From the NCBI GenBank assembly GCA_011364965.1, contig RDOB01000004.1:1-64000 (forward strand): a stretch of DNA of 64,000 bases. Direction: 5' to 3'. The stretch comes from Candidatus Heimdallarchaeota archaeon. GTDB lineage: Archaea; Asgardarchaeota; Heimdallarchaeia; Hodarchaeales; Hodarchaeaceae. A program made the translations under genes and the position numbers. Of this stretch, positions 8,271 to 22,473 are shown one piece after another (the first letter of the stretch is position 1; each line of letters starts with the position of its first letter). The notes under the pieces are model-generated. The model did no database searches, was not told the DNA's origin, and saw nothing but the letters and a program-made list of their open reading frames with translations.

Positions 8271-9278
8271 TTATCTTGGTATATGACGGGGAGAGATCCT
8301 TTCATGACAAATAGGACAATGTCCGAACACTTTCAACCATTCTAAAAGATGATTACTATGGAAGGCATTCTCACAATGAGGACATGTTATACGGGGTTCT
8401 GAAGACTGAATGTTATGTCTACATATAACGCAATGGCTTATTTCTGTTCTTGATATGGTTTGTACCCGAGAACTGGTTCGAATTATTTGGTTAACTGCTA
8501 AAATTGAATCCCCGTTTGTTTTTTGAAATAAACTCCCACTTATTTCTCCTTGATCTAATGCATGATTTAATATCTGGTTTATTAATTGAGAATCTATCGT
8601 TTTGTCTTTAAAGTACTTCATTACCTTATAGACAAGGTAATCTGACTCAATTTGATTCCTAGGACGATTAATAATCTTATCAATCGAGTTGTATAAAATT
8701 CTTTTTGTATCAATCAGAAAGAGGATCTTTTCTCGTTTTACTTCTATCGTATCCAAGGTATTAGAAGCAAATTTTTGTATCGCATGCAGAATTGATTGTA
8801 TCTCTTCTGTATTCATTGGAGCTGAATTTATATAGAGTTCAGTTGAACAGTCATCCATCAACGTTTTTATTTCAGAATGTAGTTCTTCTAGTTGCAATAA
8901 TACTTCCTTGAAAACACTTAATGGTTGCATAGGTTCAACTAATTCCACTAAAACAGCTGTTTTTTGAACTTTAAGTCTTCTTTCTCCTAATTCTTCAATA
9001 TAACGAGAAACTTCAATAAAAAAGGGCTTTCTAAAATGCTTATTAATTAGATAAACGCCAGTTATTATTGCTAAACAGCTTCCGAGTATAAAGATTTGAT
9101 CAATATTAGTGATTACACCTGAATTGAATCCAGTAAGAAGAATAAACCCACTGGATACTAAAACAATTAGAATGATGACATTTCCTGTGGTTTTATTCCG
9201 TGCGAGTCGAGAAAGTTTGGTGATGTTTGAAGCCATACCTACACCTTTAATAACACAGGAGCAAATGAAATAGATCAC
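8271..9278 (-). CDS. Membrane-anchored RING-finger protein (putative E3 ligase)
   Basis: Two N-terminal TM helices, a coiled/helical middle region, and C-terminal CVIC...CPHC...FH..H..EWL...CPIC. Likely start is ATG at 9236. Confidence 0.8.
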   Translation of the reverse strand: MIYFICSCVIKGVGMASNITKLSRLARNKTTGNVIILIVLVSSGFILLTGFNSGVITNIDQIFILGSCLAIITGVYLINKHFRKPFFIEVSRYIEELGERRLKVQKTAVLVELVEPMQPLSVFKEVLLQLEELHSEIKTLMDDCSTELYINSAPMNTEEIQSILHAIQKFASNTLDTIEVKREKILFLIDTKRILYNSIDKIINRPRNQIESDYLVYKVMKYFKDKTIDSQLINQILNHALDQGEISGSLFQKTNGDSILAVNQIIRTSSRVQTISRTEISHCVICRHNIQSSEPRITCPHCENAFHSNHLLEWLKVFGHCPICHERISPRHIPR

Positions 9279-10463: not shown

Positions 10464-11219
10464 TTGAGAATGGTTCGACTGAAAGCAGTACATATCATCA
10501 CTGAAGAAGGGTTTACTATCTATAATCAATCTTTTGGAGCCACAGAACAGGATCAGGATATGGTAGGTTCTTTGATTATGGCTCTAACCTCATTTGGAAA
10601 GGAGGCTATGGGAGAATCATTATCCTCGTTAGCTTTTGGAAAAGAGGAGGAGGGCAAAGGGGGAGCAGATATGATATTGGAATCAGGAGATAGAATTATT
10701 TCTATCGCGATTGTTGTTCTTGATAAAGATCATAAAGAAAGAGAGGAATATAAAATTCGTAATGACTTGCGAAGATTCACAAAAGAAGTGGAAAGAATCT
10801 ATGCAGACGATTTGAATGACCCCATTTTTCAAAAAAGTGCATTTTCGGGAGTAGGAACGCTTATCTTTTCCATATTCTTCCGCGACATGATGTCACGTAT
10901 TTATAACCAAGATTTTGCGAGCCTAAGTGAATATATTCGGTTCCCAACTACTTTACTTTTTGAAATTACACCTCGTGGCCCAAAACTCTATGGTTTCTAT
11001 CGTGAGTTTCCAGCATTTAAAGAGGCAATGCTAGGGATCCCCATTGAAGAATTTGACAAAATAATTGAAAACATGCAAGACAGAAATAGTATGGTTTCCT
11101 TCAAGGACTGCTTAGAAAGTTTTGGTATAGAAAAAGGTGGTCAAATACTGGAAGTTTTCAAATTTCTTACAAAACGAGGTATGTTTGAGGCATATAATTT
11201 TGAACGAATCGACTCGTAA
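10464..11219 (+). CDS. Longin-like domain protein with C-terminal helical/wH-like domain
   Basis: AVHIITEEGFTIYNQSF...DMVGSLIMALTSFGKE...F.KEVE..Y matches the longin-like pattern common in Asgard proteins. Confidence 0.65.
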   Translation: MRMVRLKAVHIITEEGFTIYNQSFGATEQDQDMVGSLIMALTSFGKEAMGESLSSLAFGKEEEGKGGADMILESGDRIISIAIVVLDKDHKEREEYKIRNDLRRFTKEVERIYADDLNDPIFQKSAFSGVGTLIFSIFFRDMMSRIYNQDFASLSEYIRFPTTLLFEITPRGPKLYGFYREFPAFKEAMLGIPIEEFDKIIENMQDRNSMVSFKDCLESFGIEKGGQILEVFKFLTKRGMFEAYNFERIDS

Positions 11220-11227
11220 GGATTTCT

Positions 11228-12058
11228 CTATTTTTCGGATGCTTTCATTGCATTAATTATAAGAGCGGTCATTTTTTTCACTTCCTTCCGAGTTTCGGAC
11301 AATTCTGACTTTATTTCGCTCTCTATGACAGCGTTCATTTCTTGTTTCATTGCTTCAGGAAGATTTGCAACACGATTTATTAGCTGATCGGTTTTTAGTG
11401 TTAACTGTTTAATTGCAGTCTCTTGGGACACTAAACGTTCTGTTACAGATGTTTTTAATTCGTTCACGGATGCTTCGAGATAAATAGCAATTCTATCTCT
11501 TAAAGATGCTAATTCAACCTGAATTATAGCATTTACACGATCGCGCAGGTCTGCAACCGTTGCTAGTTGATCAGTCTGATTTTGAATCAAAGCATTTAGA
11601 CTATCTTCTATTCTTTTGACTTGTTCAAGAATAGACACAAAATTATTCACAGTTGCCTCATATTGCCCTTTAGTAGTAGATGCAGCCTCTTTTACAATTT
11701 CCGTTATCTCATTCGATAAATTACGCATACTAACGACAACGTCTTCTACATAACTTACCTTTATAAACTTCAAATCGTTTCGGGTTTCTTCAGTGGTCTT
11801 TTCAAAGGTTCTTTGGATCGCATTTAATGCTTCTGTAAGATTAGAGATCATTGTTGGGAGGTTTTTAATTGAATTTTGCAAAGAAGTATCAATTTTTGAA
11901 TCTTCTAGAATTGAAGTTATCACAAGCATTTGTCTCTGTAGTTCATGGGCACTTGCTTGGAATTCTTCTGTCAAATTACTTGATCCAAACCTATCAATGC
12001 TCTCCTTAAGCTTCAATGTCATTCGTAAGATTTCATTGACATTATCTTCTAGACCCAT
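11228..12058 (-). CDS. Long coiled-coil/helical protein
   Basis: Heptad-like hydrophobic periodicity over most of its length; no TM segment. SD-like GAGGGT upstream. Confidence 0.7.
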   Translation of the reverse strand: MGLEDNVNEILRMTLKLKESIDRFGSSNLTEEFQASAHELQRQMLVITSILEDSKIDTSLQNSIKNLPTMISNLTEALNAIQRTFEKTTEETRNDLKFIKVSYVEDVVVSMRNLSNEITEIVKEAASTTKGQYEATVNNFVSILEQVKRIEDSLNALIQNQTDQLATVADLRDRVNAIIQVELASLRDRIAIYLEASVNELKTSVTERLVSQETAIKQLTLKTDQLINRVANLPEAMKQEMNAVIESEIKSELSETRKEVKKMTALIINAMKASEK

Positions 12059-12169: not shown

Positions 12170-13195
12170 TTATTTGAGACTTCTTAAAAATGTTTTAAAT
12201 CGGTTATTGTTCAATATTGAATCATTTAGTCGATGAATCAAAATTACTGTTTCCGAATTGATCAACTGCTTGAAATCATTTCCGATACTCTCATTGAGAT
12301 CATTATACGTTTCTTTGGCTATTATATATGATATATTTGGAATTCTTGATTCTAAATCCCCCGCTCCTAGATTGTAATTCTGGAGGATACCTTCCGATAT
12401 CCGAAATGAATCACTTAAAGAATAACTACCCTCCGCGTATTTTGAAATGCTCTCAAAGTATCTTTTTACCACATTCATTATATCTAACTCATCATCGGGA
12501 GTTAGTAATGAGGCTTCATCATTAGGATACATCTTTTTTAAATTCTGGAGAAGTCTAGCGGAAGGAGCCTCTCTAAGTAATTTGGCGATTAGAGCTTGAA
12601 TTCGCAAAACTGGAATTTGAATTACCTCATTACTATTGATTAAAGCTTGAATCGATCCTGATTCATACTTCAACAATTCCTGACAAGCGGTAAAATAATA
12701 CTTGGGAATTGCTAGATGAGATAAATTCGAATATCCAGTAAAAAGGGTAGTAATGTGTTCAAGAATCCCCCATCGATCTGTAAAATCAATGTTTCTCGAA
12801 AATAATCCTATTTTTTCAGTTTCTTCTTCTAATATTCTCCTAGGTGACCTTAAAATGCTTTTATCTATTATTTTTCCCTCTAAAATAGTAATTAGCAAAT
12901 TATTTAATTTTTCTACTTGGTCATGTAATTGAGGAGTTGATTTTGGATTTTCTAACAGTTTTTCAGTAATAGATTTTATATTATTTAATTCTTCTATTGT
13001 TTGGTTAGATAATATTTTTGAATTTTCAAGATCAAGAACCAATGATGATAGTAGATGAAGTATTGAAACATTGAAACCCAAAATTATATTCATTTTCTCT
13101 CCAAGATTTCCTCTGCTAGTCCAGAAATCAATTTCACCTAACTTAGAGGATTCGTTTCCTGTTTGATTTTTTATCTGGGAATGTTCATCATCCAA
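12170..13195 (-). CDS. Helical hypothetical protein, co-operonic with the tubulin-like gene
   Basis: TTG start 14 nt after the tubulin-like stop, preceded by GAGGT. Confidence 0.7.
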   Translation of the reverse strand: MDDEHSQIKNQTGNESSKLGEIDFWTSRGNLGEKMNIILGFNVSILHLLSSLVLDLENSKILSNQTIEELNNIKSITEKLLENPKSTPQLHDQVEKLNNLLITILEGKIIDKSILRSPRRILEEETEKIGLFSRNIDFTDRWGILEHITTLFTGYSNLSHLAIPKYYFTACQELLKYESGSIQALINSNEVIQIPVLRIQALIAKLLREAPSARLLQNLKKMYPNDEASLLTPDDELDIMNVVKRYFESISKYAEGSYSLSDSFRISEGILQNYNLGAGDLESRIPNISYIIAKETYNDLNESIGNDFKQLINSETVILIHRLNDSILNNNRFKTFLRSLK

Positions 13196-13209: not shown

Positions 13210-14574
13210 TTATTTTTGTTCTGGTTTCATATAATATCCGAATAATTTTTCCAAATCTTGAACTGCGTTCTGTAATTCCGCTTGTGTAGTCCCTTTTGAA
13301 CGCTTAAACCAATGTTGTTTTAGTTCTGAATCACCACTATGTAGCTCTATCAAAGACTTTGCCTCCTCAAGTAAATTATATAACTCAGGCACTTTGGGTA
13401 ATCCGAATAATAATAAAAGTGATGATTTTATCTTATCATCATCAAAAGCACAATAAGTTGGAGATATGCTAGCACCTTTTGCTAAGAAAGGAGTTAATGC
13501 CTTTTTTAGAAGTGGGTCGAATTCCACCCTTGCAATATCTTTGGGTCCACTGAGAACAGAGAAAACAGAGGATGCTCCTGGATTAGTACCCATATATGTT
13601 AAGCTACAATTCGCGGCAGTATATTCTACGGCAGTAGAGAGCTGAGAACCGACTCCACCGATTTCTGGAAAAATAGATAAATCATCATACATTGCAGGTA
13701 CAACAACACTATCCAATTTCAACGCAAAATCACCAATATCAGTAGTGGGTAAAACCTCCTTTCCAATTTCTGGAACACCAGGAGAAAGCATTTCTGCAAT
13801 GCAATCCAAAGCTAAAGGATTAATTAATTCAACAAATTCTTCTTCCATCTTTACAGGGAGGTCTGTTGATACTTGTCCTAAAACATTAGGGGTTGATGTC
13901 CTTCTTACCTCTGCACTTACATCTGCTAAGTCTAAACCAGTTTTACTCAGCAGATCGACTGATTCTCCTCGCTGCATACTCAAGACACGATTAAGCATTG
14001 TACGATTTGATAGGAGAAGAATTAAATCTGGTCCCATATTTCCCTCTTCAAGTTGAAGACGAAGAAGACGAGATAATGCCCAGATACTATTAACTGCCTC
14101 CGATGATTGATTGTCGAACGGAAGAACCCCAAAAACATAGATGAAAATTTTTCGTTTTTCCTCTTTTGCAAATCGCTCACGAAGTAACCTAATTAAAGCA
14201 GGGGTTCCCCCACATCCAGTACCTCCACCAAAGGAAGTAAAAATGCAAAAACCGCTAATCCCCTCATATCCTAATCCTTGTAATTGGTTTAGTATAATAT
14301 CTTGAGAATTCATTACTGCATCATAACCAGCAGAAAATTTTCCTCCGACACCTATTTCAGCGTCTGAATAGAGTAAAGTTCGTTTTTTAGATATAGAATA
14401 TTTTTTTCGTGCTTTAAGAAGATCCCCGCGATCAGTATTCATTACCAAGTATTCTCGGATTCTGGGGGGAAGTTCTCCTTTTTTTGATTTTGCTAAATAA
14501 CTTCCTACAAGATTTGAACCGCATTCACCAATTCCAATTGCAAAAATTTCAGATTCTGGAGCTTCAACTGTCAT
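13210..14574 (-). CDS. Divergent tubulin/FtsZ-superfamily GTPase
   Basis: T1 GIGECGSNL, T2 NTDRGDL, T3 GVGG, T4 signature GGGTGCGG, VLPF, T7-like TDIGDF, and a tubulin-like C-terminal HWF...G....EL..A..DL..L...Y. SD GGAGGA at 14581-14586. Confidence 0.92.
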   Translation of the reverse strand: MTVEAPESEIFAIGIGECGSNLVGSYLAKSKKGELPPRIREYLVMNTDRGDLLKARKKYSISKKRTLLYSDAEIGVGGKFSAGYDAVMNSQDIILNQLQGLGYEGISGFCIFTSFGGGTGCGGTPALIRLLRERFAKEEKRKIFIYVFGVLPFDNQSSEAVNSIWALSRLLRLQLEEGNMGPDLILLLSNRTMLNRVLSMQRGESVDLLSKTGLDLADVSAEVRRTSTPNVLGQVSTDLPVKMEEEFVELINPLALDCIAEMLSPGVPEIGKEVLPTTDIGDFALKLDSVVVPAMYDDLSIFPEIGGVGSQLSTAVEYTAANCSLTYMGTNPGASSVFSVLSGPKDIARVEFDPLLKKALTPFLAKGASISPTYCAFDDDKIKSSLLLLFGLPKVPELYNLLEEAKSLIELHSGDSELKQHWFKRSKGTTQAELQNAVQDLEKLFGYYMKPEQK

Positions 14575-14585
14575 TTAAAATCCTC

Positions 14586-17500
14586 CTAAACATCCAGCTT
14601 TGTATTACTTTTTATTTCGATTAATAATTTCATAACAAGAGACAAGTATGCCTGAATCACCTCATTATGAGGATAAGTTTCTTTAATTTTCTTTGATATT
14701 TCTTTATATTGACGAATGTTCTCTTCTGCATTATCAGTAGGGGTATAACGCGGACGAAACATTCGGATAGCTCTATGCCAGCGATTTAACTGGATAGATA
14801 CATCTTTCCATTTCTCCCTTTGGGTATCAATTTCTGGTAATAAATCTAATATAAATCGTAAATTATGAGAATCCATCAAATCTTCTCTCAATTCGATTAA
14901 GGTGGACAACGGGAAAATTTTACTAGATGCTTCTTCTATGTACCGTTTAAATACTTCTTGAATGCTCGTATAATATTCTAATTGCCCTAAAGATCCTTGA
15001 AGAGTAGTATTTCGATCTTTTTCTATAGTTTTCATCAATTGAATAATCGTACTGCGAACGTGAGCAACTTCTAATATTGCAGTTGTCAGATGTCCTATAT
15101 GGTTTGTCGTGGCTGTTGTTTGAAATCTGTTCAAATAAGATAAATCGACTCGTTCATCGCGTCTAAGATCTTGTTGATAATTCAAAAAAACATACTCTAT
15201 GCTTTCTTGTATCTCTGCTATATATTGCTCTCCCATCTTACGGATCTCATTACATGCATTTGGATCTGTCTGGAGGTTGTCAATTTCCACAAAAACTTCC
15301 GTAATTTCCTTGATCTCTACATCTTCTTGATTCTTTACAATTATTTGTGAAAATCTCTCAATATAGCCTCCAACATGAGAAATTATGTTGATTCCCACTT
15401 CTTTTAAATCATTGACATTTTTCAATACTTTGCGAGATTCTTGGACAGCCTGAGCTAATAATTCTGATACTATTTCTGTATCATAGAGGAAAATCAATTG
15501 TCGTAAGTTATTTGCTATTCGCTCATGAGAAATCTCATCTATCTGAAAATTAAGGATTTTTTGCTCCGCAGCATAAACCCTAGGATCTAAGGGTATTATT
15601 TCATTTATTCTGGGTAAACTTACACGTAACCAACTATATAGATTTTGGTGAAGGCCAGCTAAACAATCTTTTGCCATTTGCAAACTTTCTAAGCTATAAC
15701 TCTCAAAAACATTGACTAATCGTGTAATATCCTTATGAGTTTTGATCTCTTTTCTTTTATCTTCCATAAGTTTGACTAAATCATTAAAAAAGTGTCCATA
15801 TTGAAGTGGTAATTTAGAATAATCTTGTATGTGAGAGGAAAGCTCACGTTCCATCTGTTCAGCGATGGTAGAAATTCTTCGATCTATATAGGCTTGTAAT
15901 TGCCAATATTCGGTCAAAGCTTCTGAATAATCAAGATTACTTAATTCTTTTTCGGCGGGGTACTTCACACTACCTGTTTGAGATTGAAGAAGCCTGCTGA
16001 GCCTTTTATCAACTCTTTCAAGGTTTTCAATATGCTTTTTTATTTCAACCAAAATTTCATTTTTATTTTCTTCAATTGCTTCTAGGAACGTTATGTATTC
16101 TTTAATCACAGCTTCCACATTTCCAGTTTCTGCGTGTTTATCGATAAGAGAAATGAACTGGTTTCTCTTTTCTCTTAAATCAAACTCAGTTTCGATTGGT
16201 AACAGCGGAAACGGAATATTTTTTAGATTATCTCTTACCCGGGAAATTATTTTAAATTTCCAAACGGGTATCTTTTCATATTCATCTAATAGGCTTTGAA
16301 TACTGTCATCTGCTGCAATGTTTAGATCTTCACGAATAGTCTTCAAATCCTCTAGGTCTAATGGGGGAACATGTGCCTTAAGTTTGGGAGGGATTGTTTC
16401 TAAGTTAGTGAATTGATTAAAAATTGGGTGGATTTCTTGGTCAATCGAGGTCCATATTTCAATTTTAATGTCAGCATTAAGACGATTAAGCACCTCAATT
16501 TCCTTAACAAGCTCACGAATTTCTTTATCCTCAACCTCTTTACGATTCTTTTGCTCTTGTATGCGTTTGGTTAGTTCTTCTGAGAGGATTCCTCGTAAAC
16601 TTTCACGTGAATCATATAAATTGAACAGGTTTTGACGCATTGCCATTTGGGCTGGTTTTGAGAAATATGCAATTAACCGAGTCTCCCAATCTTTAATTTC
16701 TCGCACTTTATTAACTAATTCACTTGGTGAAAGCGTTTCAAAGTCACGGACTGTGGGGACTTGAGGACCATCGCTTACATTAATTACTTCTTGTATGTAG
16801 GGATTCTCTAACAATCTGAAGAAATAATTTTGGCATTCCTCACTTAATTGCGATTTTATATCGTAGTATTGTTTAATTATATGTACCCAATCTTGAAGGT
16901 CAGTTATTTTTTCAGCATCTTTCTCAATCTGCCGAATTAAATCAACAAAACCTTCAGGAAGGGGTATTTTCATTGCATTTATGGTTTTGCCTGCGTTGAT
17001 TAGCTCAGCAGGGGTAATAATTTTTTTTACTGCTATTATTTGTTGTTGATGCCAAGAACGTACCTTTTCTATATCTTGGATTATACTAGGAATTGAAGAG
17101 GAAGAAACATCAATTTCAGGAGCAGGTTTTAAATTCGATTCAGAAGATTCTTTACCTATTATTTGCATGATTCTACCAATTTGATCATCCGTTTCAGTTT
17201 TCAAAGCGATCTCATAGGTTCTTAATGCGTTTATAAGCTCATTTGCGTGATTATTTAGCGTTTTTTCAATCTCTAATAGATTTTCTACCGATTTTGCATT
17301 ATCTGCTTCAGATTGAATATCTTTAATTTGCTGTTTCAATGCTTGGGGCTTATCTCCTAAATCTAGCCCTATTGAAGAGATGGTATCTAAATGCTGTAAT
17401 ATTTCAGATGACAGTTGAACAATAGCAACTTGAATTTTACCCTTTGTTCCTTTGCGACGCTGTTTCAAGTAAGCATTCTCTGCTTCAAGCTGATCGTATA

Positions 17501-18095
17501 GATTGAGAAGATCGGAAATTGATAAGACATGAATACTTGTTTTAGTAGTCTGACTTGTAATACGAATTTTCTCTTCGTCAAAATCGACGAATTTCTCGTA
17601 TAATTCGATAACTTCGCGATTAAAAGCTAATACAGATAAATTTTTTCCTCTCAAAACTTCTGAAATCTCGTTGTAGGTTTTTAGTACACTAGCACTGAAT
17701 TTTACGATCTGAGAGGGATCGAAACTTGGGATTTGCAATTTTTTAATGGTTTCTGTTTCTTGAGGTATGAATTTCGCTATTTCCTTGATGTTATTTGCCA
17801 AGTCAAAGTAAATTTTACGATACCCAACAAGTAGAGTATTAAGTAGGCTTTCATTTAATTGATTATACTTCTCCATATATTGCTGATAATTTCTTTTCAA
17901 TCCTCTTTTCTTGAGAAAACCAGCTGAAGGAATATCATTTTGAAGCTTTTCTATTTCTCCCATTAATCTTTGGGCTTCGTTTAAGGATGGGACAACTTGT
18001 ACCGTGGGATCTAATGATCGAAGCTCTGTTGCCAAATCTCTTATTTTAAGGAGTACTTCTTTAGAAACAAGAAGTCCTTCAGTTTCTGAAGACAT
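14586..18095 (-). CDS. Giant all-alpha helical-repeat protein (1169 aa)
   Basis: Long ORF with no TM segment and recurring helix-capping/amphipathic units about every 65-70 aa. Its stop overlaps the SD of the tubulin-like gene. Confidence 0.8.
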   Translation of the reverse strand: MSSETEGLLVSKEVLLKIRDLATELRSLDPTVQVVPSLNEAQRLMGEIEKLQNDIPSAGFLKKRGLKRNYQQYMEKYNQLNESLLNTLLVGYRKIYFDLANNIKEIAKFIPQETETIKKLQIPSFDPSQIVKFSASVLKTYNEISEVLRGKNLSVLAFNREVIELYEKFVDFDEEKIRITSQTTKTSIHVLSISDLLNLYDQLEAENAYLKQRRKGTKGKIQVAIVQLSSEILQHLDTISSIGLDLGDKPQALKQQIKDIQSEADNAKSVENLLEIEKTLNNHANELINALRTYEIALKTETDDQIGRIMQIIGKESSESNLKPAPEIDVSSSSIPSIIQDIEKVRSWHQQQIIAVKKIITPAELINAGKTINAMKIPLPEGFVDLIRQIEKDAEKITDLQDWVHIIKQYYDIKSQLSEECQNYFFRLLENPYIQEVINVSDGPQVPTVRDFETLSPSELVNKVREIKDWETRLIAYFSKPAQMAMRQNLFNLYDSRESLRGILSEELTKRIQEQKNRKEVEDKEIRELVKEIEVLNRLNADIKIEIWTSIDQEIHPIFNQFTNLETIPPKLKAHVPPLDLEDLKTIREDLNIAADDSIQSLLDEYEKIPVWKFKIISRVRDNLKNIPFPLLPIETEFDLREKRNQFISLIDKHAETGNVEAVIKEYITFLEAIEENKNEILVEIKKHIENLERVDKRLSRLLQSQTGSVKYPAEKELSNLDYSEALTEYWQLQAYIDRRISTIAEQMERELSSHIQDYSKLPLQYGHFFNDLVKLMEDKRKEIKTHKDITRLVNVFESYSLESLQMAKDCLAGLHQNLYSWLRVSLPRINEIIPLDPRVYAAEQKILNFQIDEISHERIANNLRQLIFLYDTEIVSELLAQAVQESRKVLKNVNDLKEVGINIISHVGGYIERFSQIIVKNQEDVEIKEITEVFVEIDNLQTDPNACNEIRKMGEQYIAEIQESIEYVFLNYQQDLRRDERVDLSYLNRFQTTATTNHIGHLTTAILEVAHVRSTIIQLMKTIEKDRNTTLQGSLGQLEYYTSIQEVFKRYIEEASSKIFPLSTLIELREDLMDSHNLRFILDLLPEIDTQREKWKDVSIQLNRWHRAIRMFRPRYTPTDNAEENIRQYKEISKKIKETYPHNEVIQAYLSLVMKLLIEIKSNTKLDV

Positions 18096-19237: not shown

Positions 19238-21541
19238 ATGTCTGATGAATCTATTAAACCCCTCTTCTTAAAAGTGGCCGAAGCAAACCAAGGTGACGTT
19301 GGAAGAGGACTAGTCCGTATTGATTACCAGATAATGCGAGAACACAATCTCGAGACTGGGGATATCGTCGAAATATCTACTGATAGAGCAGGTGGAAGAA
19401 AAACTGGGGCATTAGTAATCCCTGGGAGAAGAGAAGATCGGGGAAAAAGGATTATTCGAATGGATGGCCTAATTAGAGGTAATGTTGGAACATCTTTAGG
19501 GGAAACTGTGAAAATAAGACCAATAAAGAAAAAAAAGGCGAAGAGGATTACGATAGCTCCAGCAGAAGAACGAATAAGGTTACTGGTCCGCTCTGACATA
19601 ATTCGTGAACGTTTACAGAATCATCCTATATCACGTGGGGATCTATTAGTTATTACGGGTCAGATCCGTAAAGTTCCACCTTCTGGTGGCCCAAGTGGAA
19701 CTGGTATGGATGACTTCATTTCTCGGTTTTTTGGAGCATCAAGTCCTGTAAGTTTGGGTGAAATCAAAGTCGTAGTTGTATCAACAGAACCAGAGGGAAT
19801 TGTTACAGTTGGGGAAACTACAGAAGTCAACATCATCGAAGAAGCACCAAAAGATTTGCGCATGATGCCTCGTGTGACTTATGAGGACATTGGAGGACTT
19901 TCAGAGGAAATTAAAAGGGTAAGGGAAATGATCGAATTACCCATGAAACATCCAGAGTTATTTGAGCGTCTTGGCATTGAACCTCCAAAAGGAGTGCTTC
20001 TTCATGGACCTCCAGGAACAGGAAAAACATTACTTGCCAAAGCAGTCGCAAATGAATCAGGGGTGAATTTTGTTTCAATTGCTGGACCTGAAATTATGTC
20101 CAAATTTTATGGTGAAAGTGAACAAAGAATCCGTGAGATCTTCCAGCAATCAGAAAAAGAAGCACCTAGTATTATATTTATTGATGAGCTGGATTCAATA
20201 GCAGCCAAACGGGAAGAGGTAACTGGAGAAGTTGAGCGACGGGTGGTTGCGCAATTACTTGCATTAATGGATGGATTGAAAAGCCGAGGAAAAGTAATTG
20301 TAATTGGTGCAACAAACCGTCCAAACGCACTTGACCCTGCTCTGAGACGCCCTGGGAGATTTGATCGTGAAATTGAGATTGGAGTTCCTGATAGAAATGG
20401 ACGCTACGAAGTGCTCTTAGTGCATACACGGGGAATGCCTCTTGCTGACGATGTAGATTTAGAACAAATTGCAGCGATAACACATGGATTTGTTGGCGCA
20501 GACATAGCAGCATTAGCAAAAGAAGCAGCAATGCATACACTACGCAAAATTCTTCCTAAAATTGACTTTGATAAACCTTTGTCTCCAGAAATTTTGCTTA
20601 AATTAGTAGTTTCAGAGGAGAATTTTGAAGAAGCACTAAAAGTCACTGAACCGTCAGCTATGAGAGAGGTATTATTGGAAATTCCCAACGTGAGATGGGA
20701 GGATGTCGGGGGTCTTGATGATGTTAAACAAAAACTTATAGAAGCAGTCGAATGGCCAATAGCCAATCCAGAAATCTTTAAACGCCATGGAATTCGACCC
20801 CCTCATGGTATCCTATTGTATGGCCCGCCAGGGACAGGAAAAACATTATTAGCGAAAGCTGTAGCTACAGAGAGCCAAGCAAATTTTATTGCAATCAGGG
20901 GCCCTGAATTGCTTTCCAAATGGGTGGGAGAAAGTGAAAAAGCAATAAGAGAAGTGTTCCGAAAAGCCAAACAAGCTGCTCCATCCATCATCTTTCTAGA
21001 TGAACTTGATGCTATAGCTCCACGAAGAGGAGCATTTACTGGAGGAAGTCATGTGATGGAAAGTGTTGTTAATCAAATTTTGTCCTTAATAGATGGATTG
21101 GAAAACTTAAGAGATGTAGTCATTTTAGCAGCAAGTAACAGACCTGATATGATTGATCCAGCTTTACTACGGCCAGGCCGATTTGATAGAGTCCTTTTAG
21201 TTAAACCACCTGACACAGAATCAAGAGAAAAGATACTAAAAATCCATACAAAAGGAATGAAATTAGCAAAAAATGTAGATCTTCCCCAGCTGGCTAAAGA
21301 TTTAGAATGGTACGTTGGTGCTGATATTGAAGCCATCTGTCGTGAAGCAGTTATGACAGCACTTCGTGAAGATATCAACACTGATTTTATTACTATCGAT
21401 CATTTCAAAGAAGCTTCTAAGGCTATTCACCCGAGTACTAGTGAGGATATAATCAAAAAATTTGAGGAAATGGAAAGACAATTACTTGGAAAATCAGAAA
21501 TTGGGCGAAAGGATTTACTAGGGTTAAAAGATTACCTCTAA
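19238..21541 (+). CDS. cdc48: CDC48/VCP AAA+ ATPase
   Basis: N-domain plus two AAA modules (GPPGTGKT twice, IIFIDELD / [17 protein letters not shown] / ALLRPGRFD). Confidence 0.97.
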
Positions 21542-22473
21542 GGCGATTTATAGATATCTAGAGGCCATTGCTTTTGCATTAATTTTAATAAAATTCGAGA
21601 GTCAAATTGATCCATTTCTATCGGACTGGTAGAAGTTTTCATCAGTCTCTCCGCTATTAATTTTGCACGAACCACTGAATCTGAATATCCTATAATAAGT
21701 CCTATTACTAATGGATGATTCTTCACAACAACTAATTGTAAATCAGAGGCGGTTAACACTTCCATCCCTGTTGATTCTTTGTTCAACTCGCTCATTGTTT
21801 CATTAATGCCCTTATTCAGCTGATCAAGTACAGTTGTAGAGATATTTGTGAATTTAGTTGTGTAGATTTGATTCGTTTCAAGATCTATCAGTATTACAAC
21901 CCGAACTTTGCATTTAAAACGAGATTCTTCTCCAGCTATGACATCTGCTAACCAATCAAATGCATCATAAAAATTTTCACCAGTTTTAGCTGAAATCCTA
22001 AACAATCCGACTGGTCTTGCCGATCTTGCAGCTCTGGGGAGATCTAAGTCCTTAACGATCAAATCAAATGACCGTGAACCAGGGAGATCAATTTTATTGG
22101 CAATGAAAAGAACGGGAACCTTATCATTCTGCTGTATTGAGTTCCAAAATGCTTCTGATGCTTCTGATATTCTTATATCAGCACTATCAAGCACAAATAC
22201 TATTGCTGATGCCTTTTTTATTGAGTCATGCCAGAGAAGATTACGATAGATTTGTTGTCCACCCAAATCAACTAAATTAAATTCAATTTGTCTATAACGA
22301 ACGGTACGGTAATTCACTCCTAGAGTTCGTGTGGTAGGAATAAATTCAGAACGAAGTAAACGATTAACAATTGTGGTTTTCCCAGCACCATCAAGACCAA
22401 TAATTGCGATCTCGTATTTCTCGGATTCTTTTGCATGGAATATCCGCCGGAGGATGCTTGACACAGTTATCAC
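21538..22473 (-). CDS. Arf-like small GTPase fused to a C-terminal roadblock/longin-like domain
   Basis: GLDGAGKTT, TRTLG, DLGGQ, NKID, ISAK; N-terminal amphipathic SSILRRIF; about 125-aa alpha/beta C-terminal extension. Confidence 0.88.
   Translation of the reverse strand: MITVSSILRRIFHAKESEKYEIAIIGLDGAGKTTIVNRLLRSEFIPTTRTLGVNYRTVRYRQIEFNLVDLGGQQIYRNLLWHDSIKKASAIVFVLDSADIRISEASEAFWNSIQQNDKVPVLFIANKIDLPGSRSFDLIVKDLDLPRAARSARPVGLFRISAKTGENFYDAFDWLADVIAGEESRFKCKVRVVILIDLETNQIYTTKFTNISTTVLDQLNKGINETMSELNKESTGMEVLTASDLQLVVVKNHPLVIGLIIGYSDSVVRAKLIAERLMKTSTSPIEMDQFDSRILLKLMQKQWPLDIYKSP

Follow-up and report, generated by a model that had tools for sequence, protein, structure and literature searches.

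In tubulin, the Trp and Phe residues of helix H11' form a longitudinal contact, the T7 loop completes the active site of the neighboring subunit, and the H6-H7 loop lies near the longitudinal interface. Eukaryotic tubulin carries an acidic H11-H12 surface, which is what motors read. The mini-microtubules of AtubAB use the M-loops as their sole lateral contact, and assembly of CetZ1 requires the M-loop. Several non-canonical archaeal families, including Halo.Tub and the artubulins, form the same grade between CetZ and the tubulins as the Asg.Tub proteins of the Asgard archaea.

Santana-Molina, del Saz-Navarro and Devos (2023; PMC9871819) describe Asg.Tub as a "CetZ-like group in Asgardarchaeota" with an unstable position between CetZ and the tubulins, nearer to CetZ, and regard the artubulins as closer to tubulins. 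According to the portions of that paper and its supplement drawn on here, four Asg.Tub sequences were used (OLS26264.1, PWI48967.1, KXH77455.1, and OLS30664.1), a C-terminal HMM match to tubulins was not found, and coiled-coil neighbors are mentioned generally for such groups. The protein described below belongs to the same family and takes the same intermediate, unstable tree position, whereas H11'-H12 packing, a fixed three-gene operon, a spread over ∼30% of Asgard genomes, and a partner interface do not appear in those portions of the text. The "CetZ-related Asgard archaeal clade" serving as an outgroup in a recent preprint (bioRxiv 10.64898/2026.02.15.705738) is probably Asg.Tub. The literature searched yielded no bench study with polymerization, GTPase, or localization data for members of the family.

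The window considered here, a stretch of 64,000 nucleotides from a Hodarchaeales genome (contig RDOB01000004.1), encodes an Asg.Tub protein in a reading frame of 454 codons that is open throughout and has GGAGGA shortly upstream. A sigma-70 promoter scan, which uses a model unsuited to archaea, gave only chance-level matches. The frame and all motifs listed in an earlier note on this DNA are found at the positions given there:

13210..14574, reverse strand: Asg.Tub tubulin-superfamily GTPase of 454 amino acids (P0001), assigned by PF00091 (65.7 bits) and homologs
14509..14529, reverse strand: T1 loop GECGSNL with an invariant Glu17 in place of the Gln of tubulin and CetZ (family alignment)
14419..14439, reverse strand: T2 loop NTDRGDL (motif position in the reading frame)
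14341..14352, reverse strand: T3 loop GVGG (motif position in the reading frame)
14209..14229, reverse strand: T4 signature GGGTGCG; Cys121 invariant across the Asg.Tub family (family alignment)
13996..14013, reverse strand: LSNRTM (motif position in the reading frame)
13846..13989, reverse strand: H6-H7 insertion of ∼40 to 44 amino acids (residues ∼196 to 243), conserved and helical at its start, variable in the remainder, pLDDT mostly below 50 (alignment and model)
13726..13743, reverse strand: T7 catalytic motif; Asp279 and Asp282 invariant and in register with the acidic T7 positions of FtsZ and tubulin, preceded by a long loop of CetZ length (family alignment)
13609..13683, reverse strand: M-loop and H9 (residues 298 to 322), the predicted docking face for the upstream rod; Gly306 and Gln311 invariant, Asp298 conserved at 91% (model, complex prediction, and conservation)

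P0001 is 83% identical over 453 amino acids to PWI48967.1, a value measured against the full-length protein of locus L055 (B3_Heim), whose C-terminal residues match PWI48967.1, and 55% identical to OLS26264.1 (P0081). Judged by these identities to founding members, it is a Hodarchaeales member of the named Asg.Tub family, and the lineage is not new. The earlier note had proposed a novel lineage unless the protein nested within a described clade, and it nests within the published Asg.Tub clade. Homologs at 52 to 85% identity occur in records from Hodarchaeales and from Thor-, Hermod-, Borr-, Sif-, and Baldrarchaeia, and the distribution of Asg.Tub matches the Asgard pattern of Heimdall/Hodarchaeales plus Thorarchaeia.

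The Tubulin/FtsZ GTPase domain (PF00091) covers residues 9 to 170, a region that also gives a weak, subthreshold Tubulin_2 match. The Pfam scan matched nothing in the C-terminal half, neither Tubulin_C nor FtsZ_C, and a search of P0001 for Tubulin_C (PF03953) found no match at an E value of ≤0.1. Searched by genome, Tubulin_C gives 0 matches in the organism's own genome and scores of 50 to 100 bits in the Atub and Odin genomes. The FtsZ equivalog model TIGR00065 scores 31.9 bits, far below its cutoff of 295.2, and canonical FtsZ is encoded separately on contig C13 of the same genome. Asg.Tub is present as a single copy in this genome, which is 87% complete, and no tandem A/B-type tubulin pair occurs here or in any of the 81 Asg.Tub loci.

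The core mixes CetZ-like and FtsZ-like traits, as the earlier note had read it. T2 is of the FtsZ type (NTD), T3 is of the CetZ type (GVGGKF), and the tubulin types DLEP and GAxNNW are absent; the CetZ consensus sequences of T1 (GQAGGK) and T2 (NTA or NSA) are not matched, with GECGSN and NTD found instead. The H7-T7 span comprises 29 amino acids, compared to 30 in CetZ and 25 in tubulin and FtsZ, and the T7-like TDIGDF keeps the acidic residues noted earlier. Loops T1 to T4, Asp279, and Asp282 are invariant in the family alignment, so that, at the level of sequence, the GTP-binding loops are intact and both T7 aspartates are retained. The Cys of T1, which had been taken for a tubulin trait, is ruled out as a marker by Methanothrix CetZ (3ZID) with GQCGNR; the invariant oddity of this loop is Glu17 rather than the Cys. 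The T4 loop had been called unusual, which holds for its invariant Cys121, but Cys-containing T4 loops occur in other archaeal families as well. The insertion after LSNRTM, previously put at about 45 residues, is borne out by a T6-H7 span of 67 amino acids in P0001, compared to 23 to 28 in the sampled CetZ proteins and tubulins and 25 to 30 in FtsZ. A segment of M-loop length is present.

The CetZ proteins (Haloferax CetZ1, 4B46, and CetZ2, 4B45; Methanothrix 3ZID) resemble Asg.Tub in the GTPase core, the GVGG-type T3, the long T7 loop without Asn, H11, and the single-subunit design, with structural Z scores of 33.8 to 34.8. Asg.Tub differs from them in T1 and T2, in the ∼40-residue H6-H7 insertion, in its dedicated partners, in its position outside the core clade, and in the additional helices H11' and H12 at the C terminus:

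13342..13389, reverse strand: H11 (residues 396 to 411), with a beginning like that of CetZ H11 (model and profile)
13231..13326, reverse strand: tubulin-like H11' (residues 417 to 427) and H12 (residues 431 to 448), including the C-terminal stretch 13231..13314; Trp422, Phe423, Lys427, Gly428, and Phe445 invariant, net charge about neutral (model, profile, and conservation)

Asg.Tub is predicted to adopt the tubulin fold with H11-H11'-H12. The AlphaFold2 model of P0001 (pLDDT of 83.9) contains helices at residues 396 to 411, 417 to 427, and 431 to 448. It superposes on OdinTubulin with a Z score of 35.8 (rmsd of 3.1 over 364 residues, model residues 6 to 453), on beta-tubulin with 34.7 (3.2 over 360, residues 7 to 450), and on CetZ2 with 34.8 (2.8 over 327, residues 8 to 414), and the top Z scores are tied at ∼34 to 36. 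The alignments reach residues 450 to 454 with OdinTubulin, beta- and gamma-tubulin, BtubA, and AtubAB (355 to 368 residues, rmsd of 3.0 to 3.9) and end at 410 to 421 with CetZ (317 to 327 residues), 416 to 417 with Bacillus TubZ, and 393 with FtsZ. Since tubulins were already known to AlphaFold and the superposition ranges are end points only, these values support, rather than prove, H11-H12 packing. In hhalign, the Asg.Tub profile of residues 393 to 450 matches a tubulin H11-H12 profile (built from beta, Atub, and Odin tubulins and two divergent eukaryotic rows) with a score of 23.8 over 27 columns, compared to a mean of 11.2 (standard deviation of 2.6, maximum of 20.3) for 144 helical or reversed decoys and 9.4 for the reversed profile. 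The tubulin-like arrangement of H11' and H12 claimed in the earlier note thus agrees with both model and profile. That note had compared an alpha-tubulin string and listed six identical residues (G, E, A, D, L, and Y), of which Gly428, Ala437, Asp440, and Leu444 are conserved at 96 to 100% and Tyr448 at 85%, whereas Glu433 reaches only 50%; His421 is conserved at 43%.

The median net charge of H11'-H12 is +1 in Asg.Tub, compared to −8 in beta-tubulins, and the tail is short and not acidic. With a neutral to basic hairpin and no acidic tail, the surface read by motors in eukaryotes is absent. The H11 profile matches CetZ H11 at 50%, the hairpin of the archaeal P0134 family matches that of Asg.Tub with 91% probability, and similar pairs of helices close the C termini of further archaeal families. 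The hairpin is therefore no marker of tubulins: H11 is already present in CetZ, the same hairpin recurs in a Thermoproteota/Korarchaeota family, and the acidic surface is missing in Asg.Tub. The true tubulins (eukaryotic alpha-, beta-, and gamma-tubulin, OdinTubulin, AtubA/B/C, and BtubA/B; PMC13394414, PMC8956254) share with Asg.Tub the full fold including H11-H11'-H12, with 355 to 368 residues superposed, the W, G, A, L, and Y of the H11'-H12 pattern, and an M-loop-length segment. They are set apart by only 14 to 19% identity, by Tubulin_C, DLEP, GAGNNW, the A/B pair, and the acidic H12 and tail, all missing in Asg.Tub, and by a long 100/100 stem between the two.

The maximum likelihood (ML) tree of 56 sequences (LG+C20, FtsZ root) contains long stems, lacks verified rows for artubulins, Halo.Tub, TubZ, and alpha-tubulin, and has CetZ rows labeled by motif only. 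A reduced tree leaves out the columns of H11'-H12 and of the insertion, together with the longest rows and one damaged gamma-like row. Asg.Tub is monophyletic with P0081 in both (100/97 in the main tree and 93/80 in the reduced tree). The true tubulins form a 100/100 clade that excludes Asg.Tub in both trees, and Asg.Tub likewise lies outside core CetZ (99/96 in the main tree and 100/96 in the reduced tree). A clade of Asg.Tub, the tubulins, and several other archaeal groups receives 95/90 and, without the hairpin columns, 98/90; the survival of this node suggests a single origin of the hairpin below it. An exclusive grouping of Asg.Tub with the tubulins has a P value of 0.028 in the AU test, compared to 0.25 for Asg.Tub with its sisters and the tubulins and 0.098 for Asg.Tub with core CetZ. 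Asg.Tub therefore lies outside true tubulins and outside core CetZ in the ML trees, while the AU tests reject neither the placement with its sisters and the tubulins nor that with core CetZ. Trees and superposition agree with the earlier note, which had suggested a place for the protein between CetZ/FtsZ and true tubulins and a divergence greater than that of OdinTubulin or AtubAB.

Several other tubulin-like proteins deserve mention on their own. P0126 (L125:8001-9374), P0137, and P0153 are the closest sister sequences of Asg.Tub (100/100); the rod gene is absent, and L125 lies near smc and scpA. P0134 (L126:8001-9308), P0151, and P0259 form a separate tubulin-like family with Thermoproteota/Korarchaeota annotations and a tubulin-like H11-H12 hairpin, and L126 adjoins a ubiquitin-type cluster (ThiF, JAB, E2, YukD-like, and RING) and a beta-propeller gene. 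A large non-canonical clade, partly from Methanosarcinales, comprises P0141, P0142, P0147, P0166, P0184, P0193, and relatives, with GEG in T1, a tubulin-resembling T3 with Asn-Asn/aromatic, and a C-terminal helix pair. These families differ from Asg.Tub in their neighbors, and no homologs of the two Asg.Tub partners described next were detected beside P0126 or P0134.

The gene lies in a tightly spaced group on the reverse strand:

14586..18095, reverse strand: upstream rod of 1,169 amino acids, helical, with ∼130-residue internal repeats, no transmembrane segment, and no recognized family; ends 11 bp before the GTPase gene (locus comparison and searches)
12170..13195, reverse strand: downstream partner of 341 amino acids, helical, with no recognized family or fold; starts 14 bp after the GTPase gene (locus comparison and searches)
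11228..12058, reverse strand: coiled-coil-like gene of 276 amino acids, following the trio in Hodarchaeales loci only and probably peripheral (locus comparison)

Of 81 loci, the window included, 76 have an upstream gene for a helical protein of 900 to 1,185 amino acids and 73 a downstream gene for a protein of ∼350 amino acids, with short gaps; several of the absences fall at contig ends. A Baldrarchaeia locus has both partners (E values of 1e-77 and 7e-33). Asg.Tub occurs in 126 of 400 Asgard genomes and the downstream partner in 123, in the same families, and 20 of the 21 genomes of the organism's own Hodarchaeales genus carry Asg.Tub genes. Gene order thus reveals a conserved three-gene operon in ∼30% of Asgard genomes. 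True tubulins are found in 8 of the 400 genomes, from four families and all without Asg.Tub, a non-overlap that rests on few genomes of related taxa. Pfam, PDB profile, and Atlas feature searches gave no usable match for either partner. Foldseek returned nothing at an E value of ≤0.001 for the predicted structure of the downstream partner; its best VIA match, to small helical bundles, has a Z score of 8.4, and Atlas TM scores by query are ≤0.26, which does not imply a new fold. One of 41 rod homologs matched GCP_C weakly, at an E value of 0.003. The match did not recur in later scans, GCP being absent among the 25 families listed for the C-terminal 400 residues of 67 members and from the PDB profile search, and a GCP-like rod was provisionally set aside.

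The Hodarchaeales rod is ∼270 residues longer than the Thorarchaeia rod, corresponding to about two extra repeats at residues 350 to 650; close to its N terminus lies a conserved basic patch, GFxKKR. At L055 (2201-9991) and L052, both from Hodarchaeales, the GTPase gene is immediately preceded by a large gene from another family (773 to 1,202 amino acids), which at L055 stands between it and the rod gene. A second Asg.Tub paralog of ∼440 to 448 amino acids and ∼53% identity is found in 8 of the 21 genus genomes (L115, L116, L119, L120, L122, and L123), on another contig or far off. It keeps a rod gene of its own but no downstream partner; next comes a convergent gene for a small-GTPase-domain protein, which in most loci has ∼730 to 740 amino acids. 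Some of these loci encode a further GTPase of ∼300 amino acids with an N terminus that looks Rag/Gtr-like by eye. An alpha/beta-like pair was rejected, as this genome has no second copy and elsewhere the paralog is distant, with its own rod gene. In 12 Hodarchaeales loci, the region 1 to 3.5 kb upstream of the operon encodes a CDC48/p97 ATPase and, in convergent orientation, an Arf-family GTPase extended at its C terminus (19238 to 22473 in the window). Also syntenic with the operon in Hodarchaeales are a 251-residue protein without a Pfam match, longin-like by eye at its N terminus (10464 to 11219, forward strand), and a membrane protein ending in a RING-like finger (8271 to 9278, reverse strand).

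A complex was predicted from three chains (rod residues 880 to 1169, downstream residues 125 to 341, and the GTPase) with author-built alignments. The score, which is a model confidence and not a measurement, is 0.78, compared to 0.00 for the best control, and the signal is gone once the upstream chain is replaced. The score mark is attained by 58 of 80 solved pairs and also by 2 of 110 mismatched ones, counts that apply only roughly to a three-chain job with its own alignments. The runs share at least 52% of contacts, with partner pLDDT values of at least 79. The confident contacts join rod residues 1105 to 1115 and 1136 to 1147 with GTPase residues 199 to 203 and 298 to 322 (H6 extension, M-loop, and H9), not H11-H12:

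14655..14783, reverse strand: predicted Asg.Tub-binding patch of the rod (residues 1105 to 1147), with invariant Trp1106 (complex prediction and conservation)

The C-terminal helical domain of the rod is therefore predicted to bind the M-loop/H9 face. Rod interface residues are more conserved than the domain average (0.66 compared to 0.49, P = 0.0006, with no correction for burial), and the GTPase side is less conserved than a protein average that includes the core (0.53 compared to 0.68). No confident contacts are listed for the downstream partner, which scores 0.00 when paired alone with the GTPase; this is not evidence against binding. Sequence searches turned up no similar complex of solved structure. 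Occupation of the M-loop face by a partner speaks against a wall of the microtubule type, at any rate in the rod-bound state. The MAP- or motor-type outer surface proposed in the earlier note fits poorly with this docking site, with the charge of H11'-H12 and the nonacidic tail, and with the occurrence of H11 in CetZ and of the hairpin in other families.

The tubulin-type outer helices and the predicted binding of the neighboring rod suggest that the gene probably belongs to an unstudied filament system. The reading favored here, with a probability of about one half, is a three-gene cytoskeletal module with the GTPase at its core: a GTP-driven protofilament of a single kind of subunit, which the rod tethers or cross-links via the M-loop face and which serves cell shape or internal organization. 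The subunits would polymerize head to tail on GTP, Asp279 and Asp282 of T7 would complete the active site of the neighboring subunit, and Trp422 and Phe423 of H11' would provide the tubulin-type longitudinal contact. The M-loop face, which closes the microtubule wall in tubulin, would be occupied instead by the rod, which would tether, space, or cross-link protofilaments and might, as a guess, be membrane linked via the conserved basic N-terminal patch; the 341-residue protein may act as an accessory factor. Cell shape or internal organization is likelier than division because another contig of the genome carries a gene for canonical FtsZ. On the other side, the ∼40-residue H6-H7 insertion could hinder polymerization, and hydrolysis might be slower with Glu17, Cys121, and no Asn in T7. 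Together with the strict linkage to a helical scaffold of ∼900 to 1,180 amino acids, retained in the duplicated paralog, and the confident rod interface, the same insertion near the plus-end face and the unusual T1 Glu and T4 Cys might indicate a non-polymerizing or short-oligomer Asg.Tub. Such a protein would be a GTP-sensing switch or a nucleation or capping template bound 1:1 on the rod, loosely like gamma-tubulin on GCPs, as the one GCP_C match would suggest. This is doubtful, however, as that match is unrepeated, the genome holds no second tubulin to nucleate besides FtsZ, and both T7 aspartates and the H11' Trp and Phe are invariant, as for an active longitudinal interface.

A divergent CetZ working like CetZ1, with dynamic envelope-associated filaments for shape control, would mean that H12 is an amphipathic helix of incidental or convergent origin and that the partner contact is a modeling artifact. 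CetZ proteins are the best PDB sequence matches, the long T7 loop, GVGG, and the start of H11 are CetZ-like, the grouping with core CetZ is not rejected by the AU test, and both PMC9871819 and the bioRxiv preprint, in the portions drawn on here, name the clade CetZ-like or CetZ-related. That interpretation is nonetheless unlikely given the placement outside core CetZ in both ML trees, a hairpin that maps onto a clade recovered without the hairpin columns, strictly co-inherited operon partners, and a predicted complex that passes its controls and uses the invariant Trp1106. Even harder to sustain is a specific precursor of the true tubulins forming microtubule-like tubes with an outward H11-H12 that binds MAP- or motor-like proteins. 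The H11'-H12 match by profile and superposition, the 95/90 and 98/90 groupings with tubulins apart from core CetZ, the AU result for Asg.Tub with sisters and tubulins, and the M-loop-length segment speak for it; against it stand the lack of a Tubulin_C match, T2 and T3 loops not of the tubulin type, the CetZ-length T7, the nonacidic H12, and the M-loop face predicted to be occupied. At least four other archaeal groups also share the node, at least one of them with the same hairpin, the exclusive clade is disfavored, and PMC9871819, in the portions drawn on here, judges artubulins to be closer.

The Asg.Tub lineage itself is already published. With 126 compared to 8 of 400 Asgard genomes, Asg.Tub is far more common than true tubulins in these close relatives of eukaryotes. 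Tentatively, Asg.Tub and a few other archaeal families may preserve a pre-microtubule stage in which H11'-H12 already served as a longitudinal contact. In Asgard archaea (Hodarchaeales, Thor-, Hermod-, Sif/Borr-, and Baldrarchaeia), this stage may have become a dedicated three-protein cytoskeleton, in which the giant repeat rod, docked on the M-loop face, would organize protofilaments as a filament-associated protein of prokaryotes. If the predictions hold, the outer helices of tubulin would be older than microtubules and the acidic motor-binding surface, and archaea would possess a dedicated filament-binding partner protein, a question raised as open in PMC13394414.
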